Positions 6,478-37,034 of a DNA stretch of 64,000 bases are shown in pieces (position 1 is the stretch's first letter; every line of letters begins with the position of its first letter). A program made the translations under genes and the position numbers. The stretch spans positions 186,001-250,000 of the forward strand of contig NIVC01001547.1 in NCBI GenBank assembly GCA_002269645.1, given 5' to 3'. The stretch comes from Macrostomum lignano (lineage: Eukaryota). Under the pieces are notes generated by a model. That model did not search any database and was not told where the DNA came from. It saw only the letters and a program-made list of their open reading frames with translations.

Positions 6478-6976
6478 AGTAGTATGAGTTTATGCAACTC
6501 TGCCGCACTTGCACTGCGGAGATAGGCGGTAATGTAAAAGGATAGGAGGGCGTAAAAGAGCCAGCTGAGATAGCCAATGGAAATAAGGGCGTGGGGTGGG
6601 TGTGATTGGCTGGGCGGCGCGGGTGGTGAAACGCTTAATGCAACTCTGCCGCACTGGGGGTGGCAGGCAGCAAAGCAAAGAATCGGAAGGTTTTGGAATA
6701 GCAGAGTAAACAAATTAAAAACAAGGTAGGCATGGCGTGGAAACGTCCACCTCAATTTGTGCCTGGCCATTGCAACTCCTCGGCGTCCCCACTGTGTTTA
6801 TCCTATAGCATGCCTATGCACTATTTGTCAGTGCGGAGTGAAATAGATAAGAGAGAGGCTCTGGTCTTCTTGAGTGTCTGGCTCTGGCGATTCTAATAAA
6901 TGGGCAATAAACTTTGTAACGGGTGCGGTGCTTGAGTGGAAAGGGTAGGGTTTGAAGTGGAGGTGAGGTTGGTGAG

Positions 6977-7693
6977 CTCTAAAACAGTTGTTCAACTCTG
7001 CCGCACTTTCACTGTGCAGGGACAGAGAGGTGGGCTCTAAAACAGTTGTTCAACTCTGCCGCACTTTCACTGTGCAGGGACAGAGAGGTGAGCTCTAAAA
7101 CAGTTGTTCAACTCTGCCGCACTTTCACTGTGCAGGGACAGAGAGGTGAGCTCTAAAACAGTTGTTCAACTCTGCCGCACTTTCACTGTGCAGGGACAGA
7201 GAGGTGAGCTCTAAAACAGTTGTTCCACTCTGCCGCACTTTCACTGTGCAGGGACAGAGAGGTGAGCTCTAAAACAGTTGTTCAACTCTGCCGCACTTTC
7301 ACTGTGCAGGGACAGAGAGGTGAGCTCTAAAACAGTTGTTCAACTCTGCCGCACTTTCACTGTGCAGGGACAGAGAGGTGAGCTCTAAAACAGTTGTTCC
7401 ACTCTGCCGCACTTTCACTGTGCAGGGACAGAGAGGTGAGCTCTAAAACAGTTGTTCCACTCTGCCGCACTTTCACTGTGCAGGGACAGAGAGGTGAGCT
7501 CTAAAACAGTTGTTCAACTCTGCCGCACTTTCACTGTGCAGGGACAGAGAGGTGAGCTCTAAAACAGTTATTCAACTCTGCCGCACTTTCACTGTGCAGG
7601 GACAGAGAGGTGAGCTCTAAAACAGTTGTTCAACTCTGCCGCAATTTCACTGTGCAGGGACAGAGAGGTGAGCTCTAAAACAGTTGTTCCACT
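6977..7693 (+). repeat. 58-bp tandem array, about 12 copies
   Basis: Unit cagttgttcaactctgccgcactttcactgtgcagggacagagaggtgagctctaaaa. Confidence 0.95.
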
Positions 7694-8568
7694 CTAGTGG
7701 TGAAACGCATATGCAATTCTGCCCTGGGTTTTTTTTCGTCCATAACTTGGGTGCGATTTCGCACCCTGTGCTAGATTTCAGGGTGCGATCTTCAAGACCA
7801 GGATGCGCTGCACTGCTGCAGACAAAAACTGGTCTAACACTAATAACACTAAAGACGTCCATAACACTAAATTGTTAAATCCGCATCACATCCTTGCAAA
7901 AAATTCTGGTGCGCTTTTCACACCCTGAGTCAAATTTCAGGGTGCGATTTTTAAGACCAGGATGCTATTCGCACCCATTCGCACAAAAAACCCAGACTCT
8001 GCCGAGATAGGAGGGCCATGGTAGTATAGAGCCCTATTGCATTGGGTTTGAAAGTGGGATGGGGGAAATCCGAGAGGAGGGGGTTAGGCGTTGTATGGGT
8101 CTGAGGTTGGTTAGGCAATGGCGCAGGCCTACGCACCTATGTCCCTCCCCCCTCCCCATTGTACACTGAGAGATATAAGGGGCTGGGCAGAGCTGTGGTT
8201 AGTTCAAGTCTTGCCGGCGGTGTAAAGGGAAAAATATAGGTATGAAAATCCGAAGGGCTGGATGATACAGTGTTCGGATCATAAAAGCTAGTTGGGGCTC
8301 ACGACGCTCTCACTGCTAGGCTCTTCCGTTGATCTCAGTTTTACAACTGTATAGGCGGTTTATGGTACAGAACGAAGCCCAATGAATATAAAGTAAATAT
8401 TGTGGGAAATTTTATTAGATAAAGGTCTGGGGTCTACTAAGCACAAAGTTTGTTATTGCGCCAGAATAATATCGGCGTGTACGAGTAATTATTTTTCTTC
8501 TTCTAGTCTACCACAACAACTGCGCTGTGTACACCGTTCTTGGAAAGAAAATTAGGGAGGGGGGTTCG

Positions 8569-9025
8569 ATTGGTCGGTTTGAGGAACAACTGGATTGGGG
8601 TTGGTGGGGAACAAATAATGATGTACATTTTATGCTGATTGGAGAGGATTGGTCGGTTTGAGGAACAACTGGATTGGGGTTGGTGGGGAACAAATAATGA
8701 TGTACATTTTATGCTGATTGGAGAGGATTGGTCGGTTTGAGGAACAACTGGATTGGGGTTGGTGGGGAACAAATAATGATGTACATTTTATGCTGATTGG
8801 AGAGGATTGGTCGGTTTGAGGAACAACTGGATTGGGGTTGGTGGGAACAAATAATGATGTACATTTTATGCTGATTGGAGAGGATTGGTCGGTTTGAGGA
8901 ACAACTGGATTGGGGTTGGTGGGAACAAATAATGATGTAAATTTTATGCTGATTGGAGAGGATTGGTCGGTTTGAGGAACAACTGGATTGGGGTTGGTGG
9001 GGAACAAATAATGATGTACATTTAA
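8569..9025 (-). repeat. 78/79-bp tandem array, about 6 copies
   Basis: Unit (minus strand) ccccaccaaccccaatccagttgttcctcaaaccgaccaatcctctccaatcagcataaaatgtacatcattatttgtt. Confidence 0.95.
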
Positions 9026-9134
9026 TGGGGATTGGAGGGTACTGTATTCAGTGGTCAGTGTTCCGCAAATTGTATATATATAAATGAAGTGAAAAATAAC
9101 TGCAGTCTTCCGAATTCTCACTTCCGCCGCAACA

Positions 9135-10154
9135 ATGAAGAAGATTAGCGACTCATGTGCTACCTTTGAAGTCTGCCTAACTTGCAACAAGTGCGTTGTT
9201 GGATTTTTAAAGCCTGGCCATCACAAAGAGTGCAACAAGAGCACTTTCAACGTTTGCTGGCAGTGTGGCGTTGTAATGAAGCGTGAAGGAAAAGCGGGAA
9301 AATTCACAGCTCACCGCGGGCATCAGCAGCTGCCTACTGGAGACAATGGAATGAAAAATTTAAGACGCATAGTTATGCAGAAAGCGCATCAAATAGCCGG
9401 AGAGCAAACCGCTGCACGACAGGCTCTCAGCCAATTAATAAACGGTGTAATTAGAGACGGCTGTAGCAGCGAGGATGACTTTGTTCAGCAGCCGCAGCAG
9501 TCACAATTCCAACGCCCACTCGGTGCTCAGTCGGCTAGACATCCCCCGGATATCAGAGGAAAGCAGATCCGCATGGACAGTCCCGACAGCCTTCTGTACG
9601 AAGAGCCAACCGATGAGGAGACTGAGGACAGCGACATTGCTATCAACAATGAGCAGCCTCTTAGCATCAGCGAGCGGCAGCAGCAGCAGCCTCCAGCCAT
9701 CGGCGAGCAGCCTCCTAGCATCAGCGAGCAGCAACAGCAGCCTCTTAGCATCAGCGAGCAGCAGCAGCAGCCTCCAGGCATCGGCGAGCAGCCTCCTAGC
9801 ATCAGCGAGCAGCAGCAGCAGCCTCCAGGCATCGGCGAGCAGCAACAGCAGCCTCCCAGCATCAGCAAGCAGCAACAGCAGCCTCTTAGCATCAGCGAGC
9901 AGCAGCAGCAGCCTCCAGGCATCGGCGTGCAGCTTTCAAGCATCAACAACATTGGTGAACAGATTGCTCAGCTAAACATTATTGAAGAACCGGCTGGATT
10001 GGATTCCCTGATGGAGGTATTGGGAGACGGGGAATTTGAGGCTGCTAATAATGTCGTACCTCGATGCCAACTGCAACTGGTGCTGCCACCAGTAATTGGA
10101 GCAGGATATATTGTAAAAATTGAAAATGACAGCATTATTTTTGTGTCTCGTTGA
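9135..10154 (+). CDS. Unknown protein: Cys/His-rich (zinc-binding-like) N-terminus, acidic patch, ISEQQQQPP repeats; encoded in the inverted arm
   Basis: ATG-started 339-aa ORF; CLTC...HHKEC and CWQC...HRGH motifs; mirrored, frameshifted copy at 20291-21368. Confidence 0.55.
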   Translation: MKKISDSCATFEVCLTCNKCVVGFLKPGHHKECNKSTFNVCWQCGVVMKREGKAGKFTAHRGHQQLPTGDNGMKNLRRIVMQKAHQIAGEQTAARQALSQLINGVIRDGCSSEDDFVQQPQQSQFQRPLGAQSARHPPDIRGKQIRMDSPDSLLYEEPTDEETEDSDIAINNEQPLSISERQQQQPPAIGEQPPSISEQQQQPLSISEQQQQPPGIGEQPPSISEQQQQPPGIGEQQQQPPSISKQQQQPLSISEQQQQPPGIGVQLSSINNIGEQIAQLNIIEEPAGLDSLMEVLGDGEFEAANNVVPRCQLQLVLPPVIGAGYIVKIENDSIIFVSR

Positions 10155-10306
10155 GCAAGCGAATTCTTGGTCACTTGGTCATTCTTGGCTATTGTGTATC
10201 TTAAAAATTCAGTTTAACTTACATTTTTTACTTTAATTTGTACTTTACCTTTTTTATTTACAATAAGCCAAGAAGTGTTTTTTGTTTAAATCAATAGCGA
10301 TTAGCA

Positions 10307-10650
10307 TCCATGGGAGAGGGTCTCCCCTGACATGCGAGTTTGCTACAGACAGCTATCAAAGAGTGTGCACCAGTTTAAGTGGAACGATGGAACCCGTCCG
10401 TACATGGAACTGGCGGAAGACATTCTGGGGATTGCCAGTGGTCCGATCTGGACAAATGGGGAAAGGAAGTCTATTTTCCTGACTGAGCTGCTTGGTAGAC
10501 AGGTTTATAACCTAGAAGATTTGGGAGCACCCTCGATTAAAGATTCAGATACTGGCTGTGCAGTGAGAAATTCATTGCTGCACTACAGTTGGCTTAAGCC
10601 AAAGTTCTGCATCAACTTAAGAAGCGAGCAGTGTCCGTGGCACAGGGGCA
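10307..10650 (+). pseudogene. 5'-truncated fragment resembling a small Cys/His-containing Polinton-associated protein
   Basis: PWERV...HQFKWNDG...PY...GERKSIFL...VYNLEDLGAPS...C...H...C resembles, from recall only, a conserved small Polinton/adintovirus ORF; the resemblance begins exactly at the inner end of the left arm. Confidence 0.35.
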
Positions 10651-11277
10651 GTGAAGTTGGCAGAAGATTTGGTGAAGAAGTCAAGGATCGAAATGAGTCC
10701 ACCTGCAGCTACAGCCCTAAGAGTGGCCAATCTGGTTGGCGGAGTGGATCTGAGACTGGATGGTGGCAGGGGCGCCCAGCTGCCTCTACGGGAACTGGCT
10801 CTCAGCATGGCTCATGTGATCTACCGGCCCGTCTGGCCCCGGGTGCTCATCAAGCGGATGCGAAGTCCCAGAGTGACTCTGCTACTCTACCCTACTGGGC
10901 AACTGAGCATCTGTGGCGCCAAGACCCACGCAGACGCCAAAAGGGCTGCCCGTCGCTTTGTGGCTATGCTGCATCGGAGAGTGCCGGATCAACTGCTGCC
11001 TCATCAAACAATTTGTGTTCGAATTAAAACTATTACTGCTCATGGACGTTTTAAGCTCCAAAATGCGCTACCGCTTACTGAACTTGTTAAAGTTTTGCCC
11101 AAAGCCCAGTATGAACCAGAAACATTTTCAGCTTTAGTTTGTCAACTTAAGTATTGTAAATGCTTGCTTTTTCATAATGCTTCTTATATTCTAAGTGGGG
11201 CGAAATCTCTGCGTATGCTAAAATCCGACAGTTCTTCCCTGTTTCGCTCTGTTAACACACTTATGCAACTAAAATAA
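10651..11277 (+). CDS. Divergent TATA-binding protein (TBP/TRF)-like protein, intronless, core domain only
   Basis: Both TBP repeats align by eye: ANLVGGVDL, YRP, RSPRVTLLLYPTGQLSICGAK...AKRAARR, then YEPETFSALV and LLFHNASYILSGAK. Confidence 0.8.
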   Translation: MKLAEDLVKKSRIEMSPPAATALRVANLVGGVDLRLDGGRGAQLPLRELALSMAHVIYRPVWPRVLIKRMRSPRVTLLLYPTGQLSICGAKTHADAKRAARRFVAMLHRRVPDQLLPHQTICVRIKTITAHGRFKLQNALPLTELVKVLPKAQYEPETFSALVCQLKYCKCLLFHNASYILSGAKSLRMLKSDSSSLFRSVNTLMQLK

Positions 11278-11461
11278 AGCACAATAATTACCCGTCTTTA
11301 ATCTTCCGACAAGAACTAGCAGAAAAAAACTTTAATATGCCTTGTTTACTAGTTTTATTTTTTGGTTAGAAAAGATGCTAAAAAATTGTCAGCAAACTGC
11401 AACACAACGAAAATTGATACTAATATTAAAATAACATAGGAAAAGAAAGAAAATGAAAATG

Positions 11462-14154
11462 CTAACACTCATAAAAGTTAAGCAAGTTTTGAAAAAGCAT
11501 TTGCACAGGTGCTTCTCGATTGTAACGGCGGCAGCTGTGGCGGCAGGGGTCTCTTAGAGCAAAGTGCCCATACGGAAGACTTTGGTTTGGGGAAGTCCAC
11601 GCACGCTTGTCCTCCCATACAGTCAGGGCACGCTTCTGTTGCTCTAAAGTGACTACTCTGTGTCGTCGGCTAGCGATTCTGCGTGTCAAGACGCGAAGCT
11701 CCTTCAAACTGGCAAACGCCTGCATGTAGTCATCGTGTGTGATTTCTGCCCGCAGCACACTCTTCTGAACACCTTTGGCTGCCTTCTTCCCTCCAGACTC
11801 GGCCTTCATCGAGTATAGTTTTGGTCTCAAAAGGATCCATTCACGATGGGGATTGCCTGCAGATTCGTCCTTTATGCAGCCTAACTTGGCTTTTAGATCA
11901 TCGGATCGGAATTGATGGTCGGCCGGGAAGTTTGAGGTATCTAGCAATCGCTGGCGAATGAGTTCTGGTAGAACAGCACTCTGAACATCGATGTTTTTAA
12001 AGCACAGAAAGAAGGAATCGGTGTCCCCACCGCATAGGGAAACTCCTTGTTGGAGAGCAGGATTCTCAAATGTTGGCTTTAGCTTTTCATAGTACAATCG
12101 GTACATCGCCAGCTTAGAGTCATCAAAAACACATTGACCTACGTAGATTGGGCGGTCAAGAGTGATTGAAGTCTTGAAAAATTGAAAAACTACTAAGTCT
12201 TGAGTCACAATCGTAAAGTCCTTAAGATTCGGACGCGATGAATAGATTTTGAACTGCTCCTCATTGTTAGAAATTCGAACACTGAGCCTCTTCCGTACGT
12301 TTTCCATCGTTTTGCCGAACAGGGAGTTATTCTTCAGTTTGTAATAGTCTTTTTCGAATTCCGTTGTAGCCGCTGAGCGCTTTTTGCTGTTTCTGTCAAT
12401 GTAGGCTTGGAAAATTGCAGCTTGACAAAATTGAATAGCTCTTCGGACCTTTTTTAGTCGCATACCGTGACGCAAGTAGAACTTCAAAATTCGGAAATGT
12501 ACGACGTAGGATTCCTTGTCATGACATGTGAGTAAAAGTTTCACACAGCCTTTGTACGGCTCGTTGCGAGTGTTCAATTCGCCCCAAAGACGTTTCATGA
12601 ATGGCGGAAACTCTTTCGAGCTTAGGCGCGGCCTTCTCGGGGGCAAATGGCAAATCTTGTGTCTGCGTGTGGATTACATCTGGATATTCCAAATCAACCT
12701 CAAATAGGTAGCCAACTGGACCATCGTCATCAAAATTTAAAATTTAGAAGCTTTTAGAAGCTACTTAAATTTAATTTAAGTAGCTTCTCTTCTGTCCATT
12801 CACACAGTTCTTCTTCACTAAGCCACTCAAAGTCACTGACGGGTAGTTTTTCGGACAGCGCTTGCCCGTAGAGATTATTCATGTCTACGGGGAGCAAAGA
12901 ATTTGTCTCGGCATTAGAAGCTGCGCTTGATGAATCTGCACCATCTGACGACTGGTGACTGGTGACTGGTCCGGCAGTAACATGATGAACGTTCGTGAAG
13001 GTCATTCCTCCACGAATGCCAAGCTCAAAGAGTCTGTACTTCTCAGCATCGTCGAGCAACTGGAGCGGTGTTGGCGCGGATTTCAGCGCGGAATCAAATG
13101 ATAGACCTGGTGTAGTAAAGTAGTGGGCTGGGTCAAGACCGTCATCATGGAGACTCAAACGGCGAAAGTTCTGAAAAACATCGGCAAGTTGACGGATGTC
13201 AAGCTGCAGGTAGGCAAGCATGTAGTCGTGCAAATTTTTTGCTTCGATCTGCTTCCAGGCTTTGCGCGCATGAGCATAGCTCTCCTCACTGCAAGCTGTC
13301 TTTGTCAGAGAGTTAAAAAACTCTTCTCTGCTCGGAAGTTCGGTCACTGCCAAATTCGCGGGGGATTTGACGAAATCATAGGGAAAGACTCCCTTGATAG
13401 ACAAAGTTTCATTAGTTAACTTTGGAAAGCAGCTTTTCATTTGCTGAGTGATTTTTCTGTCCTGGAGTGGTAAGTTGCGAATCAGTTTGTCTAGACCCGC
13501 GTTTAAAAACTGGAATGAATCGAGGAACTGCAGAGTGAAGAAAATTGTTTTCTTTTTGCCTTTCGGTAGAGTGATTTCGGCGATTGGGAAATCTACTCGA
13601 AGAGACATATAGCGTTCAGAAGTCTGAGGAATGACACTCAGCTTCCAGTTTTTCATATTTCCTAACGCTGTTGAAAACAGGAGGTGCATGTCATAATTTC
13701 GGAGATTATGGAAGAAACTCGGCAGAAATCTTCGGCGAAGTTGCGCTAATTTGTTACACCGTGAACATGCGGCGCCTTTGAATTTTCCAGTCAGATGATC
13801 AGGGTCATAGTGCTTGTCATTAGTGTCAGTAAACTGTCGATCACAGTAATGACAGTTGGAGGATTCACTGAAGATATGACTAGCAATAGTGTCTGCTTCA
13901 GCCGTTTGGTAGCTGTGCCTTCTGTTCCATTCATAGACTTCTCGAGCCACGCGTTCCAGCTCATGAAGAAACGTTTCCATACACTCCAATGGATTCGAAC
14001 TGGAGACCAACTTCACCTTACCTTGATCCTTGAGTGGTGGTCCCTTCATGCCTTCACGAGAAACGAGTAGAAATCCACCCGCTGCAGGCAGATGCTCGCT
14101 AATAAAGACGGTTTTGCCAGTTACCATGACCTCATCTGGTCTTGCTTGTACATG

Positions 14155-14234
<80 letters not shown>

Positions 14235-15395
14235 GTGTGCTGCAGACTTGCTCATTGTCGCTGACCTCCATTTCCTTAACCTTCTGATGCATGACCTCTC
14301 GAGTGTGGGGGCCTAGCGGAGAATTAAATGCTTCAATATCAGCATAGATGGCGAACGGTGCTTCAATAGTTTTGAAGTAGTTTTGAAAAGACAGCACGCT
14401 GCGCTTCTCAGTAGGAACTCGTTCCTTGACAGCAAACTCATTAGAGCGATAGCACTGCTCTCTGTGCTCACTTAGCTTCTGATCAGTAACGAAAGAGCTC
14501 AAGCAGCGTTCACACCATTTTCTGTGGTAAAGACCGCTTTTACTGTTTAGTAGCCTATCAAGGCTCACAATTCCGCACCAGTGTTTATCCTCTTCATCCT
14601 TGTTAGCTGATTTGTTCAATAGTAGGAGAATAACTACTTTGCGACTGCATGCGACTTCAACTCGTGGCTGCCTCAGCACACTGACACCGTTACTGCTTGA
14701 CCAAGAAAAAACTACAAAACATAACCTTGGGTTCAGTAATTCGATTCGATTTAGCTGGTTGAGTCCAACGGGTAAGGAAATTCCTGAAAGATTGATATCG
14801 TTCAACCAGTCCTTGTAAGTAGAAAACCTTTGAGGGTTTTTCCTCAAATTCTCATCACCGTGATGCAGCGCTGCAAGGCAGGCATACAAAAAACAATCAG
14901 AGCCAGTACTAGGAGGATTGATGACGGCTTTTTTTGCCTTCAGCAGAGGAGGTAATTCAAAATTTCTTGCGTGACCAGAGTAGAAGCGCAGTCTTTGACC
15001 AACCGCAATATTCAAGTCGATGCAGTTGACGCACACAATCACCCAACCACTGCCATTTGTGTTCATCTTCTCAATGATGCCTTCGCAACCATCAATCTGC
15101 TGCTTCCACCAATCATCAAAGCAAGCGGCGTCATTGACAGGTTGCAAACGAGTGCTTACCCATCTTTCTTCCTGGTTCACCACTTCACCAGCTTGGATTC
15201 TGTTCATTCGGATGCTCATTTTTAGCTGCGCTCTAACTAAAAGATTTGGATTCACCATCTTCTCGAATAAAATTCGCTGTATTGCTTCCCTGCTCCGTCG
15301 GGCGAGTTCAAATGGGTCACATGGTGCATCGCTTGGCACGGAAATTCGATACACCACCAGGGTTTCGTTGTGCGCACTTGCTACTTGCTGAATGT
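11462..15395 (-). pseudogene. Polinton-type (protein-primed class) family-B DNA polymerase with endonuclease VII-like zinc motif, disrupted
   Basis: GSGW N-terminal motif, C2HC-like finger CERC...HREQC, Exo I IYADIE, CHYC...DHLTGKFKGAACSRCN, Exo II HNLRNYD, Exo III YLQLD, Pol A DMNNLYG, Pol B KLKNNSLFGK, Pol C GDTDS; stop/frameshifts around 12620-12790. Confidence 0.9.
14153..14234 (+). repeat. (GCT)n microsatellite, in frame as poly-Ser inside the polymerase
   Basis: About 27 GCT units read as AGC (Ser) on the coding strand. Confidence 0.95.
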
Positions 15396-15578
15396 CTAAA
15401 ATGAAAAATTAACAGCTTTGCTTATTTTCTGTTACTCAAAGGATGGTATTCCATGATAAAGAAATTTAGACTCAATAAGCACACTTAAATCGAATTTCTC
15501 GATTTTTAAATACAAAACTTCGAATGCACCCAGGAATTAAATAACTTAAGGCTGAAATTAAAAATGTTGTTGACTCAC

Positions 15579-16005
15579 GATAAGGATGAATATTGCTGGC
15601 ACCGTTGTTTTCGATCAAGCTGAGTTCACTTCTTGCACTGCCGCCGCCGGTGTCGCTTCCTGCACTGCCGCCGCCGGTGTCGCTTCCTGCACTACCGCCG
15701 CCGGTGTCGCTTCCTGCACTACCGCCGCCGGTGTCGCTTCCTGCACTGCCGCCGCCGGTGTCGCTTCCTGCACTGCCGCCGCCGGTGTCGCTTCCTGCAC
15801 TACCACCGCCGGTGTCGATCAGACTGGAACCGCTACTAGCACAATCTTGCTTAGTGTTGTTGGTGTCGGTTTCAGAGAGCCCATCGAAATCACTCTCCGA
15901 GTAGTCTGCCCCGGAACTTGATTCAGACCAATTATCTTCGCTCTCTGATTCTGACCAGCAGTCACAATCGGACTCTGAAAACTCGCTTGAGTCCTGCTCT
16001 GCCAC
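15579..16005 (-). CDS. Probable first exon of the polymerase: acidic Ser/Asp/Glu-rich region plus 27-bp repeats (DTGGGSAGS)n
   Basis: ATG at 16005; donor C|GTGAGT at 15579/15578 and acceptor TTTTCATTTTAG| at 15396/15395 are both phase 1 and join in frame to PolB, which otherwise lacks an ATG. Confidence 0.5.
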
Positions 16006-16476
16006 TTTGCCTGTTATTTGGTTCCCTTAGCTGCAATTAGTTGAGTGGTCAAATACATCTCTAATACAAAGTATGGATACAAATTAAACTTTCAAACTAT
16101 TATATTTAAGTGAAAAACTAATATTGAAATTGATTAAATAGAAACGAAATTCCAACTTATCCAGTCATAATGAAGTAAAAAATCGAATGCTAGCAGTATA
16201 TTTTTACTTCAATTTTTCTGCATCAAAGTATTTAGACTTACAATTACAATGCTATCAGGGTAAGCTTTTGATTGTCAAAATGAATTTAATAGCCCCTGCC
16301 AGTTACCGCAGGCAAAAAAAAATTGAAAACTGGGGCTACGACCGGTGCTGCTTGAGGCAGTTCTAGATTTTCAAAAACTTGTATTCATATTTGAGTCAAC
16401 AATTAAATGATTGGCTTATTTAATTGTAGATTGATACTACTAAAAGCTATGATGCTCGAAATATTCTATCTAGCTT

Positions 16477-16572
16477 TGCTAATCGCTATTGATTTAAACA
16501 AAAAACACTTCTTGGCTTATTGTAAATAAAAAAAAGCTAAAGTACAAATTAAAGAAAAAATTTAGGTTAAAA
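16477..16572 (-). repeat. Inner segment of right inverted arm
   Basis: Reverse complement of 10212-10306 (tgctaatcgctattgatttaaacaaaaaacacttcttggcttattg...). Confidence 0.85.
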
Positions 16573-16924
16573 CTAGCAATCTAGCGCCCCCCTTCGGGGT
16601 GGCCAATAAGCAAGGGACGAATCCTTTAAAATGAAAAAAAATTCTTAGGGAGGGGGGCTAGGAATCGAATTCTCATTTTAATTCCAGGCTTATGTACCAA
16701 TAAAACATGCTTGTGCAGAATTTTATAACAGACATTGAAATTCAACCATACTTGCCTTCTTTCAGAGCTACTTCTACCAGTATGCTTCAGTACGCTACCA
16801 GTACCCTTGTAAGCCTTGACATGTCAGCAATCCCCCCCCACAAGCCTTAACATATCAACTCCCCCCTTGATATCTCAGCAATGCTCCCATAAGCCTTGAA
16901 ATCTTAAAAAATCTGTCTACTTTC

Positions 16925-16960
16925 TAACCCTAACCCTAACCCTAACCCTAACCCTAACCC
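16925..16960 (-). repeat. Interstitial telomere-type repeat (TTAGGG)6
   Basis: Six taaccc units on the plus strand. Confidence 0.85.
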
Positions 16961-17899
16961 TAAAGCATTGAAATTTCAGTAATTCTCTCTAAGAGTCTAT
17001 AGCACTACTACAGCATTATATCGATTCCCTGCAAGCCTCGACATCGTAGGGATTCCCAAATGAATCTCTTAACTTTGACATGAAGCTTCTTTTTTTTACA
17101 TTACGCTTTTTCTATCAGCGATCCCTCCCGTGAGGAGCCAACAAATAATGTAATAACTTTTTTCCAATAAACTACATGTAGCTTCTGACATTAGCCTTGA
17201 CATCTCATTTATTCCCCCGTGAGCCTTGACATCTCAGCTATAGATAGATAGATAGATTCCCCTCGTAAGCCTTGACATGTCAGCGATGCCCCCCATAAAC
17301 CTTGAAATCTAAAAAATCCCCTGTTAACCTTGAAACGCGCTAAAATCTAACCCTCAACCCAAACCTGACGTAAACCTAACTTTCACCCAACCTAAAGCCT
17401 TGAAATCACAGCAATTCTTCTTCCCTAAGCCTTGGCATTTAAGTGATTCCTTCTTTAAGAATCACAGCACTATAACGATTCCCTCCAAGCTTTGACATCG
17501 TAGCAATTCCCAAATGAATCTTTTAACTTTGACATGACTTTTATTTTATGTATACATAGTGCTCCTTTTATTTTTACATGACTCTTCTTCTATCAGCGCC
17601 CCCCCCACCGTGGCAAGCCAACAAAGAATACAATAAAAAAACTTAAGTAAAGTACATGTACTTTGAAGTAGCTTCTGACTTTTGCTTTAACATCTCAGAA
17701 ACCCCCCTGTAATCTCAGTTATTCTCTGTGAGCCTTGACGTCTCAGTAATTCTCCCCAGCACAGCACTATAGCTTCATTTAATTTTTATATGACACTTCT
17801 TTCATGTCTGACATGACGCTTCTTTTGATTTTTACGTTACGCTTCTTTTATTCTTCCATGATGCTTCTTAATTTTTTAAATGACACTTTCATTAGTTTT

Positions 17900-18455
17900 T
17901 ATATGAGGCTTCTATGATTTTTTCATGACGCTTCTATGTTAACATGACGCTTCTATGCTTGTTTACATGACGCTTTTATGATTGTTTACATGACGCTTCT
18001 ATGATTGTTTACATGACGCTTGTATGATTGTTTACATGACGCTTGTATGATTGTTTACATGACGCTTCTATGATTTTTACATGACGCTTCTATGATTGTT
18101 TACATGACGCTTGTATGATTGTTTACATGACGCTTCTATGATTTTAACATGACGCTTCTATGATTGTTTACATGACGCTTTTATGATTGTTTACATGACG
18201 CTTCTATGATTTTTGCATGACGCTTCTATGATTTTTACATGACGCTTCTATGATTTTTACATGACGCTTCTATGATTGTTTACATGACGCTTGTATGATT
18301 GTTTACATGACGCTTGTATGATTTTAACATGACGCTTCTATGATTGTTTACATTACGCTTCTATGATTGCTTGCATGACGCTTCTATGATTGTTTACATT
18401 ACGCTTCTATGATTGCTTGCATGACGCTTCTATGATTTTTTACATGACGCTTCCA
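17900..18455 (+). repeat. ~21-22-bp minisatellite inside the Helitron
   Basis: Unit catgacgcttctatgattgttta and variants. Confidence 0.9.
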
Positions 18456-18764
18456 TAATTTTTTTTTGTCTTGGCGTTAAAAAGCTTTAATTAAAAAAAC
18501 TCTACTCTCTAAAAATTCGAACCATCGTCCCTGCATTTAGCAGTTTAGTCTGTTTACCTCTAGGCTAGCTCTCATGAATTTTAGTCATTACCCCTAAATA
18601 GAAAATATTCCCAAGACAGCAAGCATCCCCCCAGTAGCAAGCATCCCCTAATACTCCTAGCAAGCATCCACCCAGATAGCAAGCATCCTGCACATAGCAA
18701 GAATCCCTAAATAGCAAGCATCCCTGGATAGAAATAATCCTATACATGTAGCCAAGCTTATCAA

Positions 18765-19592
18765 GCGCAGTAATCCTTGGCTATCGAGTGCAGTAATCCT
18801 TGGTTTATTAATAGCAATAATCCATGGCTTATCGAGTGCAGTAATTCTTGGTTTGCCAAGTGCAGTAAGTAATCCTTGGTTTATTACTAGCAATAATCCA
18901 TGGCTTATCGAGTGCAGTAATCCTTGGTTTATTAATAGCAATAATCCTTGGCTTATCGAGTGCAGTAATCCTTGGTTCGGGTTGCATTAATCCTTGGTTT
19001 ATTAATAGCAATAATCCTTGGCTTATCGAGTGAAGTAATCCTTGGTTTATTAATAGCAATAATCCTTGATAAATCAAGTGCAGTAATCCTTGGTTTGCCA
19101 AGAGCAATAGTCCTTGGTTTATTGAGTGCAGTAATTCTTGGTTTATTAATAGCAATAGTCCTTGGTTTATTGAGTGCAGTAATCCTTGGTTTATTAATAG
19201 CAATAATCCTTGGCTTATCGAGTGCAGTAATCCTTGGTTTGCCAAGTGCATAATCCTTGGTTTATTAATAGCAATAATCCTTGGCTTATTGAGTGCAGTA
19301 ATCCTTGGTTTATTAATAGCAATAATCCATGGCTTATCGAGTGCAGTAATCCTTGGTTTGCCAAGAGCAATAGTCCTTGGTTTATTGAGTGCAGTAATCC
19401 TTGGTTTATTAATAGCAATAGTCCTTGGTTTATTGAGTGCAGTAATCCTTGGTTTATTAATATCAATAATCCTTGGCTTATCGAGTGCAGTAATCCTTGG
19501 TTTATTAATAGCAACAATCCTTGGCTTATCGAGTGCAGTAATCCTTGGTTTGCCAAGAGCAATAATCCTTAGCTTATCGAGTGCAGTAATCT
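18765..19592 (+). repeat. ~24-bp minisatellite with alternating sub-units inside the Helitron
   Basis: Units gagtgcagtaatccttggtttattaatagcaataatccttggcttatc and variants. Confidence 0.9.
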
Positions 19593-20290
19593 AAGTGTTT
19601 TTTTTTAGTCCTTTAATAAAAGCTTTTAATAAAAAAATTTACACTACTACTTAGATTCGAACCCAGGTCGCTGCATTAGCAGTCTGGTCTGTTCAGCTCT
19701 AGGCTAGCTCTCATCGAAGTTATCAGTGAATTTGTACCACTTATATAATTCAACACTCACACCAAGTCAGGTAGAGTAAAAAGTCACACGAAGCAGTTAT
19801 GACATAATCAATTTCTTAGGCAAGTCAGTACCAGTGTCTATGAAAGCTAACAATATGGTTACGTAATATAAATTCAGTACTGCGCTATGCTTTCACACTC
19901 AAAGCTGTGACGCAATTCAATTGAGTGTCAAATTCAGCCAGTACACAGGCGATAAATAAAGTGTATTGTGATGCAATCTATTTCAGAATCAGAATTCAAC
20001 CAGTCAGTTTTATCTCTAGCATTCTTACAATGCATTTCAAGTCAAAAAGTTTGCTTGACCTTTGCAAAAAAGCATGTTTTTCGAATATTTAATCCCTTTA
20101 GCATCGAGCAATTTCTTAGCCACGGTGCATGTACAGTCACGGGAAAATTTCTGATCGAACAGTGCAAGTTCGAACAAAATCGGTCCAGCCATTTTTTCTC
20201 TAATCGATCACATAGACACAGACAGACTTAAGATGAATTTTTAAGATACACAATAGCCAAGAATGACCAAGTGACCAAGAATTCGCTTGC

Positions 20291-21368
20291 TCAACGAGAC
20301 ACAAAAATAATGCTGTCATTTTCAATTTTTACAATATATCCTGCTCCAATTACTGGTGGCAGCACCAGTTGCAGTTGGCATCGAGGTACGACATTATTAG
20401 CAGCCTCAAATTCCCCTTCTCCCAATACCTCCATCAGGGAATCCAATCCAGCCGGTTCTTCAAAATGTTTGGCTGAGCAATCTGTTCACCAATGTTGTTG
20501 ATGCTTGAAAGCTGCTCGCCGATGCCTGGAGGCTGCTGCTGCTGCTCGCTGATGCTAAGAGGCTGCTGTTGCTGCTTGCTGATGCTGGGAGGCTGCTGTT
20601 GCTGCTCGCCGATGCCTGGAGGCTGCTGCTGCTGCTCGCTGATGCTAGGAGGCTGCTCGCCGATGCCTGGAGGCTGCTGCTGCTGCTCGCCGATGCCTGG
20701 AGGCTGCTGCTGCTGCTCGCCGATGCCTGGAGGCTGCTGCTGCTGCTCGCTGATGCTAAGAGGCTGCTGTTGCTGCTCGCTGATGCTAGGAGGCTGCTCG
20801 CCGATGCCTGGAGGCTGCTGCTGCTGCCGCTCGCTGATGCTAAGAGGCTGCTCATTGTTGATAGCAATGTCGCTGTCCTCAGTCTCCTCATCGGTTGGCT
20901 CTTCGTACAGAAGGCTGTCGGGACTGTCCATGCGGATCTGCTTTCCTCTGATATCCGGGGATGTCTAGCCGACTGAGCACCGAGTGGGCGTTGGAATTGT
21001 GACTGCTGCGGCTGCTGAACAAAGTCATCCTCGCTGCTACAGCCGTCTCTAATTACACCGTTTATTAATTGGCTGAGAGCCTGTCGTGCAGCGGTTTGCT
21101 CTCCGGCTATTTGATGCGCTTTCTGCATAACTATGCGTCTTAAATTTTTCATTCCATTGTCTCCAGTAGGCAGCTGCTGATGCCCGCGGTGAGCTGTGAA
21201 TTTTCCCGCTTTTCCTTCACGCTTCATTACAACGCCACACTGCCAGCAAACGTTGAAAGTGCTCTTGTTGCACTCTTTGTGATGGCCAGGCTTTAAAAAT
21301 CCAACAACGCACTTGTTGCAAGTTAGGCAGACTTCAAAGGTAGCACATGAGTCGCTAATCTTCTTCAT
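20291..21368 (-). pseudogene. Frameshifted mirror copy of the 9135-10154 arm ORF
   Basis: Identical N-terminus MKKISDSCATFEVC; frame lost near 20960 (C5 run versus C4) and again near 20462. Confidence 0.7.
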
Positions 21369-21477
21369 TGTTGCGGCGGAAGAGAGAATTCGGAAGACTG
21401 CAGTTATTTTTCACTTCATTTATATATATACAATTTGCGGAACACTGACCACTGAATACAGTACCCTCCAATCCCCA

Positions 21478-22328
21478 TTAAATGTACATCATTATTTGTT
21501 CCCCACCAACCCCAATCCAGTTGTTCCTCAAACCGACCAATCCTCTCCAATCAGCATAAAATGTACATCATTATTTGTTCCCCACCAACCCCAATCCAGT
21601 TGTTCCTCAAACCGACCAATCCTCTCCAATCAGCATAAAATGTACATCATTATTTGTTCCCCACCAACCCCAATCCAGTTGTTCCTCAAACCGACCAATC
21701 CTCTCCAATCAGCATAAAATGTACATCATTATTTGTTCCCACCAACCCCAATCCAGTTGTTCCTCAAACCGACCAATCCTCTCCAATCAGCATAAAATGT
21801 ACATCATTATTTGTTCCCCACCAACCCCAATCCAGTTGTTCCTCAAACCGACCAATCCTCTCCAATCAGCATAAAATGTACATCATTATTTGTTCCCCAC
21901 CAACCCCAATCCAGTTGTTCCTCAAACCGACCAATCCTCTCCAATCAGCATAAAATTTACATCATTATTTGTTCCCACCAACCCCAATCCAGTTGTTCCT
22001 CAAACCGACCAATCCTCTCCAATCAGCATAAAATGTACATCATTATTTGTTCCCCACCAACCCCAATCCAGTTGTTCCTCAAACCGACCAATCCTCTCCA
22101 ATCAGCATAAAATGTACATCATTATTTGTTCCCCACCAACCCCAATCCAGTTGTTCCTCAAACCGACCAATCCTCTCCAATCAGCATAAAATGTACATCA
22201 TTATTTGTTCCCCACCAACCCCAATCCAGTTGTTCCTCAAACCGACCAATCCTCTCCAATCAGCATAAAATGTACATCATTATTTGTTCCCCACCAACCC
22301 CAATCCAGTTGTTCCTCAAACCGACCAA
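21478..22328 (+). repeat. 78/79-bp tandem array, about 11 copies
   Basis: Same unit as 8569-9025, opposite strand. Confidence 0.95.
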
Positions 22329-23204
22329 TCGAACCCCCATCCCTAATTTTCTTTCCAAGAACGGTGTACACAGCGCAGTTGTTGTGGTAGACTAGAAGAA
22401 GAAAAATAATTACTCGTACACGCCGATATTATTCTGGCGCAATAACAAACTTTGTGCTTAGTAGACCCCAGACCTTTATCTAATAAAATTTCCCACAATA
22501 TTTACTTTATATTCATTGGGCTTCGTTCTGTACCATAAACCGCCTATACAGTTGTAAAACTGAGATCAACGGAAGAGCCTAGCAGTGAGAGCGTCGTGAG
22601 CCCCAACTAGCTTTTATGATCCGAACACTGTATCATCCAGCCCTTCGGATTTTCATACCTATATTTTTCCCTTTACACCGCCGGCAAGACTTGAACTAAC
22701 CACAGCTCTGCCCAGCCCCTTATATCTCTCAGTGTACAATGGGGAGGGGGAGGGACATAGGTGCGTAGGCCTGCGCCATTGCCTAACCAACCTCAGACCC
22801 ATACAACGCCTAACCCCCTCCTCTCGGATTTCCCCCATCCCACTTTCAAACCCAATGCAATAGGGCTCTATACTACCATGGCCCTCCTATCTCGGCAGAG
22901 TCTGGGTTTTTTGTGCGAATGGGTGCGAATAGCATCCTGGTCTTAAAAATCGCACCCTGAAATTTGACTCAGGGTGTGAAAAGCGCACCAGAATTTTTTG
23001 CAAGGATGTGATGCGGATTTAACAATTTAGTGTTATGGACGTCTTTAGTGTTATTAGTGTTAGACCAGTTTTTGTCTGCAGCAGTGCAGCGCATCCTGGT
23101 CTTGAAGATCGCACCCTGAAATCTAGCACAGGGTGCGAAATCGCACCCAAGTTATGGACGAAAAAAAACCCAGGGCAGAATTGCATATGCGTTTCACCAC
23201 TAGA

Positions 23205-25143
23205 GTGGAACAACTGTTTTAGAGCTCACCTCTCTGACCCTGCACAGTGAAAGTGCGACAGAGTTGAACAACTGTTTTAGAGCTCACCTCTCTGACCCTG
23301 CACAGTGAAAGTGCGGCAGAGTGGAACAACTGTTTTAGAGCTCACCTCTCTGACCCTGCACAGTGAAAGTGCGGCAGAGTTGAATAACTGTTTTAGAGCC
23401 CACCTCTCTGACCCTGCACAGTGAAAGTGCGGCAGAGTTGAACAACTGTTTTAGAGCTCACCTCTCTGTCCCTGCACAGTGAAAGTGCGGCAGAGTTGAA
23501 CAACTGTTTTAGAGCTCACCTCTCTGTCCCTGCACAGTGAAAGTGCGGCAGAGTTGAACAACTGTTTTAGAGCTCACCTCTCTGTCCCTGCACAGTGAAA
23601 GTGCGGCAGAGTTGAACAACTGTTTTAGAGCCCACCTCTCTGTCCCTGCACAGTGAAAGTGCGGCAGAGTTGAACAACTGTTTTAGAGCCCACCTCTCTG
23701 TCCCTGCACAGTGAAAGTGCGGCAGAGTTGAACAACTGTTTTAGAGCTCACCTCTCTGTCCCTGCACAGTGAAAGTGCGGCAGAGTTGAACAACTGTTTT
23801 AGAGCCCACCTCTCTGTCCCTGCACAGTGAAAGTGCGGCAGAGTTGAACAACTGTTTTAGAGCCCACCTCTCTGTCCCTGCACAGTGAAAGTGCGGCAGA
23901 GTTGAATAACTGTTTTAGAGCTCACCTCTCTTTCCCTGCACAGTGAAAGTGCGGCAGAGTTGAACAACTGTTTTAGAGCCCACCTCTCTGTCCCTGCACA
24001 GTGAAAGTGCGGCAGAGTTGAATAACTGTTTTAGAGCTCACCTCTCTGTCCCTGCACAGTGAAAGTGCGGCAGAGTTGAACAACTGTTTTAGAGCCCACC
24101 TCTCTGTCCCTGCACAGTGAAAGTGCGGCAGAGTTGAATAACTGTTTTAGAGCTCACCTCTCTTTCCCTGCACAGTGAAAGTGCGGCAGAGTTGAACAAC
24201 TGTTTTAGTGCCCACCTCTCTGTCCCTGCACAGTGAAAGTGCGGCAGAGTTGAACAACTGTTTTAGAGCTCACCTCTCTGTCCCTGCACAGTGAAAGTGC
24301 GGCAGAGTTGAATAACTGTTTTAGAGCTCACCTCTCTTTCCCTGCACAGTGAAAGTGCGGCAGAGTTGAACAACTGTTTTAGAGCCCACCTCTCTGTCCC
24401 TGCACAGTGAAAGTGCGGCAGAGTTGAACAACTGTTTTAGAGCTCACCTCTCTGTCCCTGCACAGTGAAAGTGCGGCAGAGTTGAACAACTGTTTTAGAG
24501 CTCACCTCTCTGTCCCTGCACAGTGAAAGTGCGGCAGAGTTGAACAACTGTTTTAGAGCTCACCTCTCTGTCCCTGCACAGTGAAAGTGCGGCAGAGTTG
24601 AATAACTGTTTTAGAGCTCACCTCTCTGTCCCTGCACAGTGAAAGTGCGGCAGAGTTGAATAACTGTTTTAGAGCTCACCTCTCTGTCCCTGCACAGTGA
24701 AAGTGCGGCAGAGTTGAACAACTGTTTTAGAGCTCACCTCTCTGTCCCTGCACAGTGAAAGTGCGGCAGAGTTGAACAACTGTTTTAGAGCTCACCTCTC
24801 TGTCCCTGCACAGTGAAAGTGCGGCAGAGTTGAACAACTGTTTTAGAGCTCACCTCTCTGTCCCTGCACAGTGAAAGTGCGGCAGAGTTGAACAACTGTT
24901 TTAGAGCTCACCTCTCTGTCCCTGCACAGTGAAAGTGCGGCAGAGTTGAACAACTGTTTTAGAGCTCACCTCTCTGTCCCTGCACAGTGAAAGTGCGGCA
25001 GAGTTGAACAACTGTTTTAGAGCTCACCTCTCTGTCCCTGCACAGTGAAAGTGCGGCAGAGTTGAACAACTGTTTTAGAGCCCACCTCTCTGTCCCTGCA
25101 CAGTGAAAGTGCGGCAGAGTTGAACAACTGTTTTAGAGCTCAC
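23205..25143 (-). repeat. 58-bp tandem array, about 33 copies
   Basis: Reverse complement of the 6977-7693 unit. Confidence 0.95.
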
Positions 25144-28100
25144 CAATCTCACCTCCACTTCAAACCCTACCCTTTCCACTCAAGCCCCGCACCCGTTACA
25201 AAGTTTATTGCCCATTTATTAGAATCGCCAGAGCCAGACACTCAAGAAGACCAGAGCCTCTCTCTTATCTATTTCACTCCGCACTGACAAATAGTGCATA
25301 GGCATGCTATAGGATAAACACAGTGGGGACACCGAGGAGTTGCAATGGCCAGGCACAAATTGAGGTGGACGTTTCCACGCTATGCCTACCTTGTTTTTAA
25401 TTTGTTTACTCTGCTATTCCAAAACCTTCCGATTCTTTGCTTTGCTGCCTGCCACCCCCAGTGCGGCAGAGTTGCATAAGCGTTTCACCACCCAGCCAAT
25501 CACACCCACCCCACGCCCTTATTTCCATTGGCTATCTCAGCTGGCTCTTTTACGCCCTGCTATCCTTTTACATTACCGCCAATGTTTGGGATTCACCAAT
25601 GTTTGGGATCCACCAATGTTTAGAATCCACCAATGTTTGGGTTCCACCAATGTTTGGGATCCCCCAATGTTTGGGTTCCACCAATGTTTGGGATTCACCA
25701 ATGTTTGGGATCCACCAATGTTTAGGATCCACCAATGTTTAGGATGCCCCAATGTTTGGGATCCACCAATGTTTGGGTTCCACCAATGTTTAGGATCCAG
25801 CAATGTTTGGGTTCCACCATTGTTTGGGATTAACCAATGTTTGGGATTCACCAATGTTTGGGATCCAGTAATGTTTGGGATTCACCAATGTTTGGGATCC
25901 AGCAATGTTTGGGATCCAATAATGTTTGGGTTGCACCAATGTTTAGGATCCACCAATGTTTGGGATTCACCAATGTTTGGGATCCAGCAATGTTTTTGAT
26001 AACCTAATGTTGGGGAAACCAATGTTTATGATCGACCAATAATAAGGATCAACCAGTGTTTTGCATTCACCAATGTTTTGGTTTCACCAATGTTTGGGTT
26101 CCACCAATGTTTGGGATTCACCAATGTTTGGGATCCACCAATGTTTAGGATCCACCAATGTTTAGGATCCCCCAATGTTTGGGATCCACCAATGTTTAGG
26201 ATCCACCAATATTTGGGATTCACCAATGTTTGCGATCCAGCAATGTTTGGGTTCCACCAATGTTTAGGATCCAGCAATGTTTTGCATTCACCAATGTTTG
26301 GGTTCCACCAATGTTTAGGATCCACCAATGTTTGGATCCACCAATGTTTGGGATCCCCCAATGTTTGGGATCCACGGATGTTTGGGTTCCACCAATGTTT
26401 AGGATTCACCAATGTTTGCGATCCAGCAATGTTTGGGTTCCACCAATGTTTGGGATTAACCAATGTTTGGGATTCACCAATGTTTGGGATCCAGTAATGT
26501 TTGGGATTCACCAATGTTTGGGATCCAGCAATGTTTGGGATCCAATAATGTTTGGGTTCCACCAATGTTTAGGATCCACCAATGTTTGGGATTCACCAAT
26601 GTTTTGGTTTCACCAATGTTTGGGTTCCACCAATGTTTGGGATTCACCAATGTTTGGGATCCAGTAATGTTTAGGATCCCCCAAGGTTTGGGTTCCACCA
26701 ATGTTTGGGATCCACCAATGTTTGGGTTCCACCAATGTTTAGGATCCACCAATGTTTGGGATTCACCAATGTTTGCGATCCAGCAATGTTTGGGTTCCAC
26801 CAATGTTTGGGATTAACCAATGTTTGGGATTCACCAATGTTTGGGATCCAGTAATGTTTGGGATTCACCAATGTTTGGGATCCAGCAATGTTTGGGATCC
26901 AATAATGTTTGGGTTGCACCAATGTTTAGGATCCACCAATGTTTGGGATTCACCAATGTTTGGGATCCAGCAATGTTTGGGTTCCACCAATGTTGGAGAT
27001 TAACCAACGTTTGGGATTAACCAATGTTTTTGATAACCTAATGTTGGGGAAACCAATGTTTATGATCGACCAATAATTAGGATCAACCAGTGTTTTGCAT
27101 TCACCAATGTTTTGGTTTCACCAATGTTTGGGTTCCACCAATGTTTGGGATCCACCAATGTTTGGGTTCCACCAATGTTTAGGATCCCCCAATGTTTGGG
27201 ATCCACCAATGTTTAGGATCCACCAATGTTTGGGATTCACCAATGTTTGCGATCCAGCAATGTTTGGGTTCCACCAATTTTTAGGATCCAGCAATGTTTT
27301 GCATTCACCAATGTTTGAGTTCCACCAATGTTTAGGATCCACCAATGTTTAGGATCCACCAATGTTTAGGATCCCCCAATGTTTGGGATCCACGGATGTT
27401 TGGGTTCCACCAATGTTTGGGATCCACCAATGTTTGGGATTCACCAATGTTTTGGTTTCACCAATGTTTGGGTTCCACCAATGTTTGGGATTCACCAATG
27501 TTTGGGTTCCACCAATGTTTGGGATTCACCAATGTTTGGGATCCCCCAATGTTTGGGATCCACGGATGTTTGGGTTCCACCAATGTTTAGGATCCACCAA
27601 TGTTTGGGATTCACCAATGTTTGGGTTCCACCAATGTTTGGGATTCACCAATGTTTGGGATCCAGCAATGTTTGGGATTCACCAATGTTTGGGATTCACC
27701 AATGTTTGGGATTCACCAATGTTTGGGATTCACCAATGTTTTGGTTTCACCAATGTTTGGGTTCCACCAATGTTTGGGATTCACCAATGTTTGGGTTCCA
27801 CCAATGTTTGGGATTCACCAATGTTTGGGATTCACCAATGTTTGGGATTCACCAATGTTTGGGATCCAGTAATGTTTGGGATTCACCAATGTTTGGGATC
27901 CAGCAATGTTTGGGATCCAATAATGTTTGGGATCCAGTAATGTTTGGGATTCACCAATGTTTGGGATCCAGCAATGTTTGGGATCCAATAATGTTTGGGA
28001 TTCACCAATGTTTGGGATCCAGCAATGTTTGGGATTCACCAATGTTTGGGATCCAGCAATGTTTGGGATCCACCAATGTTTGGGATTCACCAATTTTTTG

Positions 28101-31500: not shown

Positions 31501-31796
31501 CGCTCGATGCCGCCGAGCGACACTGCCAGGCTGGCCACCTGCCGCACCGGCACCGCTTGCTGGATGACTGCCCGCAGCTCCAGGTGCACGCTCTCCAGCT
31601 GAGCTGGCCGCATGCTCTGCAGGACCCGCTTGTCCACGATTGACACCTGGCTGCCTGAGTCGATAAGCGCCGTGACGTCCGCGCCTCCGATCCTGCACTG
31701 CAGCTTGGATGTCGCCGAGTTCGGCCTGATGACGACTGCCGCTGCGCTGCTGCTGGCTGCACCGCTCCCCTCTGCGCCCAGGAACAACCCACTCAC
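28512..31796 (-). pseudogene. Gypsy pol: protease, RT, RNase H, integrase (two frameshifts in integrase)
   Basis: LIDSGS, LTIDYRELN, FSVIDLNGGYFQI, YKDD, YTDAS, HEGIGGH...CQEC, AIDVL...SDQGANF, LSYNSRVHSST; split over ORFs 29406-31796, 29104-30141 (3' part) and 28512-29156. Confidence 0.9.
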
Positions 31797-31810
31797 GCTG
31801 GGGCCCGCGC

Positions 31811-34626: not shown

Positions 34627-34685
34627 TTTTTAACAACTTCAACGCGTTTCGCACGCCATGGTGCATCGTCAGGATTTTATTAGAA
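34627..34685 (-). ncRNA. Minimal hammerhead ribozyme (Penelope-type)
   Basis: Reverse complement of the 37035-37092 motif. Confidence 0.7.
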
Positions 34686-34969
34686 CGATTTGAGAAATTG
34701 AGATTGAAAGCGATTGATTAAATATTGGTTTTTGCAACGTACACAGGTAAGGAGGGTAAGATTGAAAACAATTGATTACAACTTGGCTTTAACAACATAC
34801 ATAGGTATAGTAGGTAGGAGAGAGAATTATAGATTGAGAATGAAAGTTAAACCAAATGTACACAATTCTTGTCCAGTGGTCAAAAGGCAGAATCAGGGGC
34901 GGTAGCTAGCTTAGGTAATTGAACGTCAAGCTAAGTGTACACAGCGTGCACGACTGTGTCACTCACTGT

Positions 34970-36249: not shown

Positions 36250-36250
36250 C

Positions 36251-36750: not shown

Positions 36751-37034
36751 ACAGTGAGTGACACAGTCGTGCACGCTGTGTACACTTAGCTTGACGTTCA
36801 ATTACCTAAGCTAGCTACCGCCCCTGATTCTGCCTTTTGACCACTGGACAAGAATTGTGTACATTTGGTTTAACTTTCATTCTCAATCTATAATTCTCTC
36901 TCCTACCTACTATACCTATGTATGTTGTTAAAGCCAAGTTGTAATCAATTGTTTTCAATCTTACCCTCCTTACCTGTGTACGTTGCAAAAACCAATATTT
37001 AATCAATCGCTTTCAATCGCAATTTCTCAAATCG

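Follow-up and report, generated by a model that had tools for sequence, protein, structure and literature searches.

A TBP-like gene is a standing gene of two multicopy Polinton families in the genome of Macrostomum lignano, not a domesticated relic, and the genes of the block in which it lies are enriched for the upstream hexamer TAAGAA. It is probable (about 0.6) that the encoded protein reads a TAAGAA box and switches on the internal block of the element after the host TBP has fired the terminal genes. The locus offers a candidate timing factor, a candidate binding site and an internal control family for the study of Polinton virion genes. The analysis started from one window (the whole stretch of 64,000 nucleotides), in which an intronless open frame was found at 10621-11277 on the plus strand.

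Carrier families and the copy in the window

A genome search with the TBP-like protein, in which 150 of 232 candidates were scored, returned 152 matches; this is a minimum and does not give the number of copies. The matches comprised family A, with subfamilies at ~97-100, 80 and 77% identity, and family B, at 37-39% (~26 long matches); the TBP-like proteins of the two families are 37% identical. A convergent PolB lies within 1.5 kb of the gene in 26 of the 30 best loci, so its linkage to PolB is kept in other copies. Furthermore, at least three of five core Polinton genes were found within 10 kb in 18/20 family A loci and 18/20 family B loci, the two family A exceptions being located at contig ends.

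Full family A copies span ~17 kb and begin with a PC4-like gene, an rve integrase, a putative minor capsid gene, a small basic ORF and a putative major capsid gene; protease, ATPase, a 110-aa ORF and a 230-aa ORF follow, and the end is formed by a DnaQ-like ORF, the TBP-like gene, the convergent PolB and a terminal ORF. In family B the internal block is the same, but PolB precedes the integrase and PC4 follows the TBP-like gene. A protein-primed-type PolB (PF03175, just under or over the cut-off depending on the piece) and an rve integrase (PF00665, E 1e-13 in both) were found in families A and B. The ATPase matched Pox_A32 under the cut-off (E 0.011), with a visible Walker A motif, and the protease matched Peptidase_C5 (E 0.002) and C48 (E 0.009), both also under it. 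Two conserved ORFs (427 aa and 269 aa; 41% and 24% identity between families, without Pfam match) are putative double and single jelly-roll capsid genes, labelled so with gene order as a guide. The family A copy C114, on which termini and target duplication were scored, has a 413-bp terminal inverted repeat (TIR), AGTAGT...ACTACT ends and a 6-bp direct flank marking the target duplication. A PC4/Sub1-like gene (PF02229) is also present in both TBP-bearing families, preceded by a TATA box of the ordinary type (L037:872-1531 and L049:6794-7432).

The DnaQ-like ORF has 278-293 aa in full copies, of which the N-terminal ~160 aa resemble a DnaQ/DEDD-type fold (a lead only). It overlaps the TBP-like gene in another frame and stays stop-free for 110 codons in family A (window 10693-11027) and 129 codons in family B (L049:5712-6097), with P 0.002-0.03 per copy tested by synonymous shuffles. 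A functional overlap tail was rejected, as the tail shows dN/dS of 2-4 in its own frame, without amino-acid constraint.

A third Polinton family (C) of the same genome spans 16.1 kb (L125:1935 to L126:8036; G000 C142), has 472-bp terminal repeats and yielded at least 98 capsid matches at 97-100% identity. It encodes integrase, PolB, protease, ATPase and a PLA2-like protein, and no TBP or PC4 match was found in it. Its start codons are preceded by T-rich and then A-rich tracts.

The features of the window copy are as follows.

6478-10305: left arm, with an AGTAGT terminus; mostly an inverted duplicate of the element's other end
6971-7695: 58-bp tandem array in the terminal repeat, without TAAGAA or TATAWA
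8568-9037: 79-bp tandem array, likewise without TAAGAA or TATAWA
9135-10154 (plus): terminal 'arm' ORF of 339 aa, with a Cys-rich N-terminus and Gln-rich repeats; TATATATAAA box ahead
10305/10306: rearrangement junction, where the duplicated arm meets the native gene block; also in L008, another contig
10306-11027 (plus): 5'-truncated DnaQ-like ORF, its tail overlapping the first 110 codons of the TBP-like gene
10616-10623 (plus): CTTAAGAA, candidate TATA-variant box; its TAAGAA begins 75 nt before the TBP-like ATG
10693-11277 (plus): TBP-like gene, 194 aa, two repeats, without N-terminal tail
11273-11278 (plus): AATAAA, probable polyadenylation signal, overlapping the TBP-like stop codon
11462-15408 (minus): Polinton-type PolB with an endonuclease VII-like domain (PF03175, Endonuclease_7)
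15472-16026 (minus): acidic repeat-containing ORF of the element
16572-20227: insertion, not seen in any full copy compared, that holds minisatellites, a (CTAACC)n tract and high-copy host repeats
20228-25583: right arm, with a frame-changed arm ORF, the 79-bp and 58-bp arrays and the terminal repeat

Rather than being a whole element, this copy is a derivative that is young and has been rearranged. From 10306 to ~16370 it is 96-98% identical to copies C96 and C986. Its left arm begins with the same first bases as those two copies, matches 20228-25580 in inverted orientation at 95-99% and occupies the place that PC4, integrase, capsids, protease and ATPase hold in full copies. Since these genes are missing and PolB is interrupted, the gene set is short of that of an autonomous Polinton. 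The presence of the same junction in the window and in L008 argues against a one-off assembly error. The arm ORF, which has homologues in family A copies and no Pfam family, recurs in the right arm, which lacks the outermost ~45 bp and is followed by a 17-bp satellite. The interstitial, telomere-like (CTAACC)n tract (16924-16963) lies within a high-copy repeat inserted in the element.

The TBP-like gene is convergent with a broken PolB, as first described: the stop codon is 185 bp from the end of PolB, which lies on the opposite (minus) strand and is split by an interruption at ~12.6-12.8 kb into the frames 12754-15408 and 11462-12673. An intact TBP-like gene beside a broken PolB is no sign of selective retention, as the copy shares 97-99% identity with others and PolB is uninterrupted, in frames of 1066-1277 aa, in four further copies; the gene is intact in the window because the copy is young. 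The start at 10651 was corrected, as that position is an in-frame GTG and the ATG of intact copies corresponds to 10693. At the other end, AATAAA or ATTAAA was found within 131 nt of the TBP-like stop in 6/6 copies. Four sequencing runs that may be of RNA have contigs over the gene block, and in two of them contigs are missing from parts of the window that are covered in the other two; as the type of run is a guess and contigs show neither strand, start nor level, this is not counted as evidence of expression.

Fold and DNA-facing residues of the TBP-like protein

The initial annotation had read the gene by eye as an intact, core-only TBP fold, and this reading was borne out. The 194-aa protein matched PF00352 in two stretches (E 9.5e-21; 73.9 bits against a Pfam cut-off of 22.9), that is, with two TBP repeats in one chain, which places it in that family, and 35 TBP entries were matched among PDB sequences. 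An AlphaFold2 model from a 10-row alignment reached a pLDDT of 91 and took the saddle fold in a Foldseek comparison with solved cellular TBPs (TM 0.78-0.83); viral TBP-like models (BFVD) were matched with TM up to 0.75, so the model is closer to cellular TBPs than to those of Nucleocytoviricota and mirusviruses.

Residue positions were assigned by profile alignment to the host TBP, which upheld the by-eye reading of the DNA-contacting residues. The intercalating Phe of the second repeat are retained (F145 and F160), and the first-repeat pair is replaced by P49 (with W48 adjacent, the register being uncertain) and Y66; of the two central Asn, the first is kept (N13) and the second is T113. The protein therefore has two of the four intercalating Phe and one of the two central Asn of a canonical TBP. 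The C-terminal stirrup glutamates that serve TFIIB are both present (E141 and E143) in 48/48 rows of an alignment that holds 41 intact sequences of both families plus 7 outside relatives and represents, in effect, two lineages. N13, P49, Y66, C74, T113, E141, E143, F145, K156 and F160 are invariant in all 48, among them the DNA-facing substitutions P49, Y66, C74, T113 and K156, so the altered face is maintained and not decaying. The Pro that follows the second-repeat Phe is replaced in 48/48 rows, by S, T or N in 47 of them.

The TAAGAA motif and its candidate reader

Across the integrase-to-TBP block, TAAGAA ranked top of all hexamers in windows from -160 to -14 of three elements that share ancestry, being present in 21/29 upstream windows versus 13/478 in the background (Bonferroni 2e-18). 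Single elements gave 8/10 versus 2/198, 8/10 versus 7/150 and, in family B, 5/9 versus 4/130. Against a null in which the upstream proteins were held fixed and their codons resampled synonymously, three A copies showed 7/9 versus 1.2-1.7 expected (P 2e-6 to 4e-5) and family B 4/8 versus 1.5 expected (P 0.019). The motif falls in different reading frames at different genes and is tied to starts, lying in non-coding DNA before the integrase and in mid-ORF before the TBP-like ATG, at 33 to 147 nt from the ATG. Almost all copies scored retain it, for instance 17/17 before the family A TBP-like gene, 16/16 before the family A ATPase and 17/17 before the family B DnaQ-like gene; one family B minor-capsid copy has it 10 nt before the ATG and again at -93. 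In both families the protease and the 230-aa gene lack it, as does the ATPase of family B. The family B TBP-like gene has TATAAAA at the equivalent place (16/16), and the terminal genes are preceded by TATAWA in 5/5 cases and by TAAGAA in 0/5. A stop-codon artefact was rejected as the source of the motif, an upstream stop being involved at one gene only and the motif lying inside coding frames elsewhere; an end signal is disfavoured by position.

The octamers seen were CTTAAGAA, TTTAAGAA, TATAAGAA, CATAAGAA and CCTAAGAA. They have the form of a TATA box in which position 6 is G and positions 1-2 are loose. CTTAAGAA, the box met most often in family A, differs from TATAWAWR at three positions, and the TATAAGAA boxes are one base off a normal TATA box.

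TAAGAA is not enriched in the TBP-less family C (1/12 versus 12/186), and it precedes 1/6 host-side ORFs of the window, a small sample. With a single TBP-less control set against two families that bear a TBP, joint inheritance of the motif and the gene would be a simple explanation of the pattern.

In the preferred reading, the host TBP would first transcribe the terminal genes (PC4, the arm ORF and, in family B, PolB), and the TBP-like protein would be made early, in family B via its ordinary TATAAAA. The family A gene, behind a variant box, would first need leaky or read-through expression. The protein would then bind the TATA-variant box of the elements (N-N-TAAGAA) and bring in TFIIB and RNA polymerase II from the host, so that integrase, capsid and packaging genes would be expressed late, possibly with the element's PC4 as a co-factor. 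Most of these presumed target genes have been lost from the window copy. A phmmer search with host TFIIB/Brf exon frames found only low-complexity matches to TFIIB among 568 frames of 5 copies, a search that a very divergent TFIIB could escape. Together with the kept stirrup glutamates, this makes host TFIIB the likely partner. The chances are about even that the whole forms a two-step, virus-style programme in which an element TBP with a re-tuned DNA face uses a private TAAGAA box with unmodified host TFIIB and Pol II.

As described in a passage of PMC10005294, TBP uses two Phe pairs to kink its box, one between base pairs 1-2 and one between base pairs 7-8, and contact with TFIIB is made by the stirrup glutamates. 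According to an excerpt of PMC12529657, the Pro after the second-repeat Phe favours T at box position 1; the loss of this Pro would fit a loose position 1, a match drawn from that one passage. Against the preferred reading stand the block genes without a box (several), the spread in distance between motif and ATG and the replacement of two of the four intercalating Phe: TRF2, having lost such Phe, does not bind TATA boxes (PMC10005294), and the KSHV mimic requires all four (PMC12529657). A further difficulty is the location of the family A gene behind its own presumed target box, which leaves its first-round expression to be accounted for.

The proposal of the initial annotation that the element redirects host machinery with altered specificity is thus backed indirectly, by selection, the fixed DNA face, the glutamates and the motif. 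The part that placed the DNA target in the arm repeats is probably wrong, as the 58-bp and 79-bp repeats hold neither motif.

An unlikely alternative is that the protein acts as a decoy or competitor that soaks up host TFIIB, Mot1, NC2 or TAFs while a host factor reads TAAGAA; its aim, equally doubtful, would be to damp host transcription or to shield the element's promoters. Such a role would suit a protein whose two stirrup glutamates never vary and whose first-repeat Phe pair has been altered, and a host reader is conceivable for the TATAAGAA boxes, as normal TBP has, judging by structure titles, been solved in complex with TATA variants that differ by one base. However, a decoy has no need of a fixed DNA-facing surface, yet the substitutions are invariant across families of 37% identity, and the commonest family A box is three positions away from TATAWAWR. 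Furthermore, no enrichment was seen in the TBP-less family of the same host, and the motif precedes 1/6 host-side ORFs of the window.

It is still less probable, with roughly a one-in-eight standing in our judgement, that TAAGAA is an initiator-type signal or a late signal of a helper virus, comparable to TAAG in baculoviruses, where a viral RNA polymerase reads it. The TBP-like protein would then have another site of action, for example the termini or, jointly with PC4, single-stranded intermediates of replication. The motif does contain TAAG, the baculovirus late element in the part of PMC4893493 used here, and the Phe-less Giardia TBP binds single-stranded DNA according to a section of PMC12209930. 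The copy of the family B minor-capsid gene with a motif 10 nt before the ATG would suit an initiator, but the same gene has a second motif at -93. Moreover, the octamer aligns base for base with a TATA box, and the family B TBP-like gene carries TATAAAA at the equivalent place. No helper virus was noticed in the loci retrieved.

Selection, ancestry and relation to known systems

Selection was estimated from 41 distinct intact coding sequences out of 70 matches (some loci overlap), by pairwise Nei-Gojobori dN/dS between natural copies with bootstrap intervals, the pairs being non-independent. The TBP-like gene is under purifying selection in family A: dN/dS was 0.18-0.39 in 14/14 pairs between subfamilies, with bootstrap upper limits <0.6 and with the second half of the gene near saturation. 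The three family B pairs are too close to judge (0.30, 0.80 and 0.39; 2/3 intervals include 1). Where family A subfamilies are close, the first TBP repeat has a dS of ~0.1, whereas the second reaches >1.1 or saturation, and contigs part ways near window 11047 (codon 118). The jump and the divergence suggest recombination between the repeats and chimeric TBP-like genes.

Two quick trees were built without ten short, fused or duplicated proteins, the reduced one from 49 hand-picked rows of 152. Both trees place families A and B, together with outside relatives, in a single long-branch group that is distinct from host TBP and TRF2, with a support of 88 in the large tree and an SH-aLRT of 99 in the reduced one. 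The separate clade is therefore recovered, yet forcing the element TBPs together with the host TBP is not rejected (AU p 0.056, quick tree). The host genome has its own TBP and a TRF2-like gene, with three matches each. The close outside relatives are proteins on short contigs only, and for two of them the longest contig has the same length as for relatives of the 230-aa ORF, which is no more than a hint. Scans of viral contigs and metagenome contigs with TBP-like and capsid alignments returned no matches. In the large tree, eight short, divergent TBP-like proteins on long branches (P0058, P0139, P0019, P0021, P0032, P0041, P0088 and P0154) branch near the element clade; possibly they too are TBPs of mobile elements.

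Capture of a host TBP or TRF2 retrocopy, now neutrally decaying or domesticated for a host role, would be in keeping with the intronless gene and with the unrejected joining to host TBP, but it is highly improbable given ~30% identity to TBP, purifying selection, fixed synteny in two Polinton families, a single long-branch clade shared with outside relatives and separate host TBP and TRF2-like genes. Neutral decay is largely refuted. Retention for a host function, which had been offered as an alternative, does not agree with a gene that accompanies Polintons in more than 100 matches in a host that has both TBP and a TRF2-like gene, and among the loci examined no fixed, element-free orthologous locus was seen.

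With cellular TBP and TRF2/TBPL1 (PF00352), the element protein shares the two-repeat saddle (TM ~0.8), N13, the second-repeat Phe pair and the YEPE stirrup glutamates. It differs in being 22-25% identical in structural alignments, encoded by a mobile element and without an N-terminal tail, and in having P and Y for the first-repeat Phe, T for the second Asn and no post-Phe Pro.

A functional analogy may be drawn to the TBP mimics of beta- and gammaherpesviruses (EBV BcRF1, KSHV ORF24, CMV UL87), which use TATT late boxes according to parts of PMC4893493 and PMC12529657. The proposed shared logic would be the lack of an own RNA polymerase, an own TBP-fold protein and a TATA-variant late box. 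According to these sources, the mimics are ~10% identical to TBP and work in a six-protein viral complex, whereas the element protein is a bare core of 190 aa. In ORF24 all four Phe are present, the glutamates for TFIIB are missing and Pol II is bound directly, whereas the element protein keeps the glutamates. No herpesvirus vTBP/vPIC family was found in a Pfam scan of the element ORFs, so the protein is not of the ORF24 type; it would work like the herpesvirus mimics without being a member of their family. That an altered-specificity TBP-promoter pair arose here independently of the herpesvirus TATT system, which is part of the two-step reading, could with equal chance be right or wrong.

Nucleocytoviricota and mirusviruses also have a virus-borne TBP fold, and most of those with a TBP have their own RNA polymerase. 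Most of these viral TBPs have changed stirrup glutamates and are accompanied by an own TFIIB, according to a portion of PMC7221094. Such a TBP and TFIIB pair was not detected in the five element copies searched.

The carriers themselves resemble Polintons/Mavericks (adintoviruses) and the MELD elements of Starrett et al. 2021 (PMC8502044), with which they share pPolB and rve integrase, in the family A copy C114 a TIR with AGT ends and a 6-bp target duplication, and, going by matches under the cut-off, a putative ATPase and a putative cysteine protease. The Fig. 5 legend of that paper lists TBP among adintovirus-like elements; in the available part of its text the carrier is unnamed and neither promoter motif nor function is given, and the supplement text has no TBP. 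Here, in contrast, two families in an animal genome have both TBP and PC4 as fixed genes, and a matching motif lies upstream. No published account of a Polinton TBP gene or of the TAAGAA motif was found in a survey mainly of titles and abstracts with few subscription papers, nor any work, in titles and abstract starts, on the timing of virion genes in Polintons without an own RNA polymerase. If the preferred reading is true, a TBP with host TFIIB contacts that reads another box would be a natural orthogonal transcription part, and the view that Polintons keep a real viral cycle would be supported.

The remainder of the window holds several other features. At 52824-61824, four long ORFs (455-487 aa) stand in tandem, and caspase-like domains (Peptidase_C14) were found in them. 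A Penelope-like element (RT plus GIY-YIG) is located at 34592-37128 between 879-bp inverted repeats, within arrays of the 17-bp satellite, and a GC-rich, LTR-retrotransposon-like pol/gag (RT, RNase H, integrase and zinc knuckle) is found inside the 17-bp satellite at 28512-32227. Furthermore, a Tc1-like transposase is located at 48535-49467 and a Glycosyltransferase family 7 ORF at 306-1469 on the minus strand.
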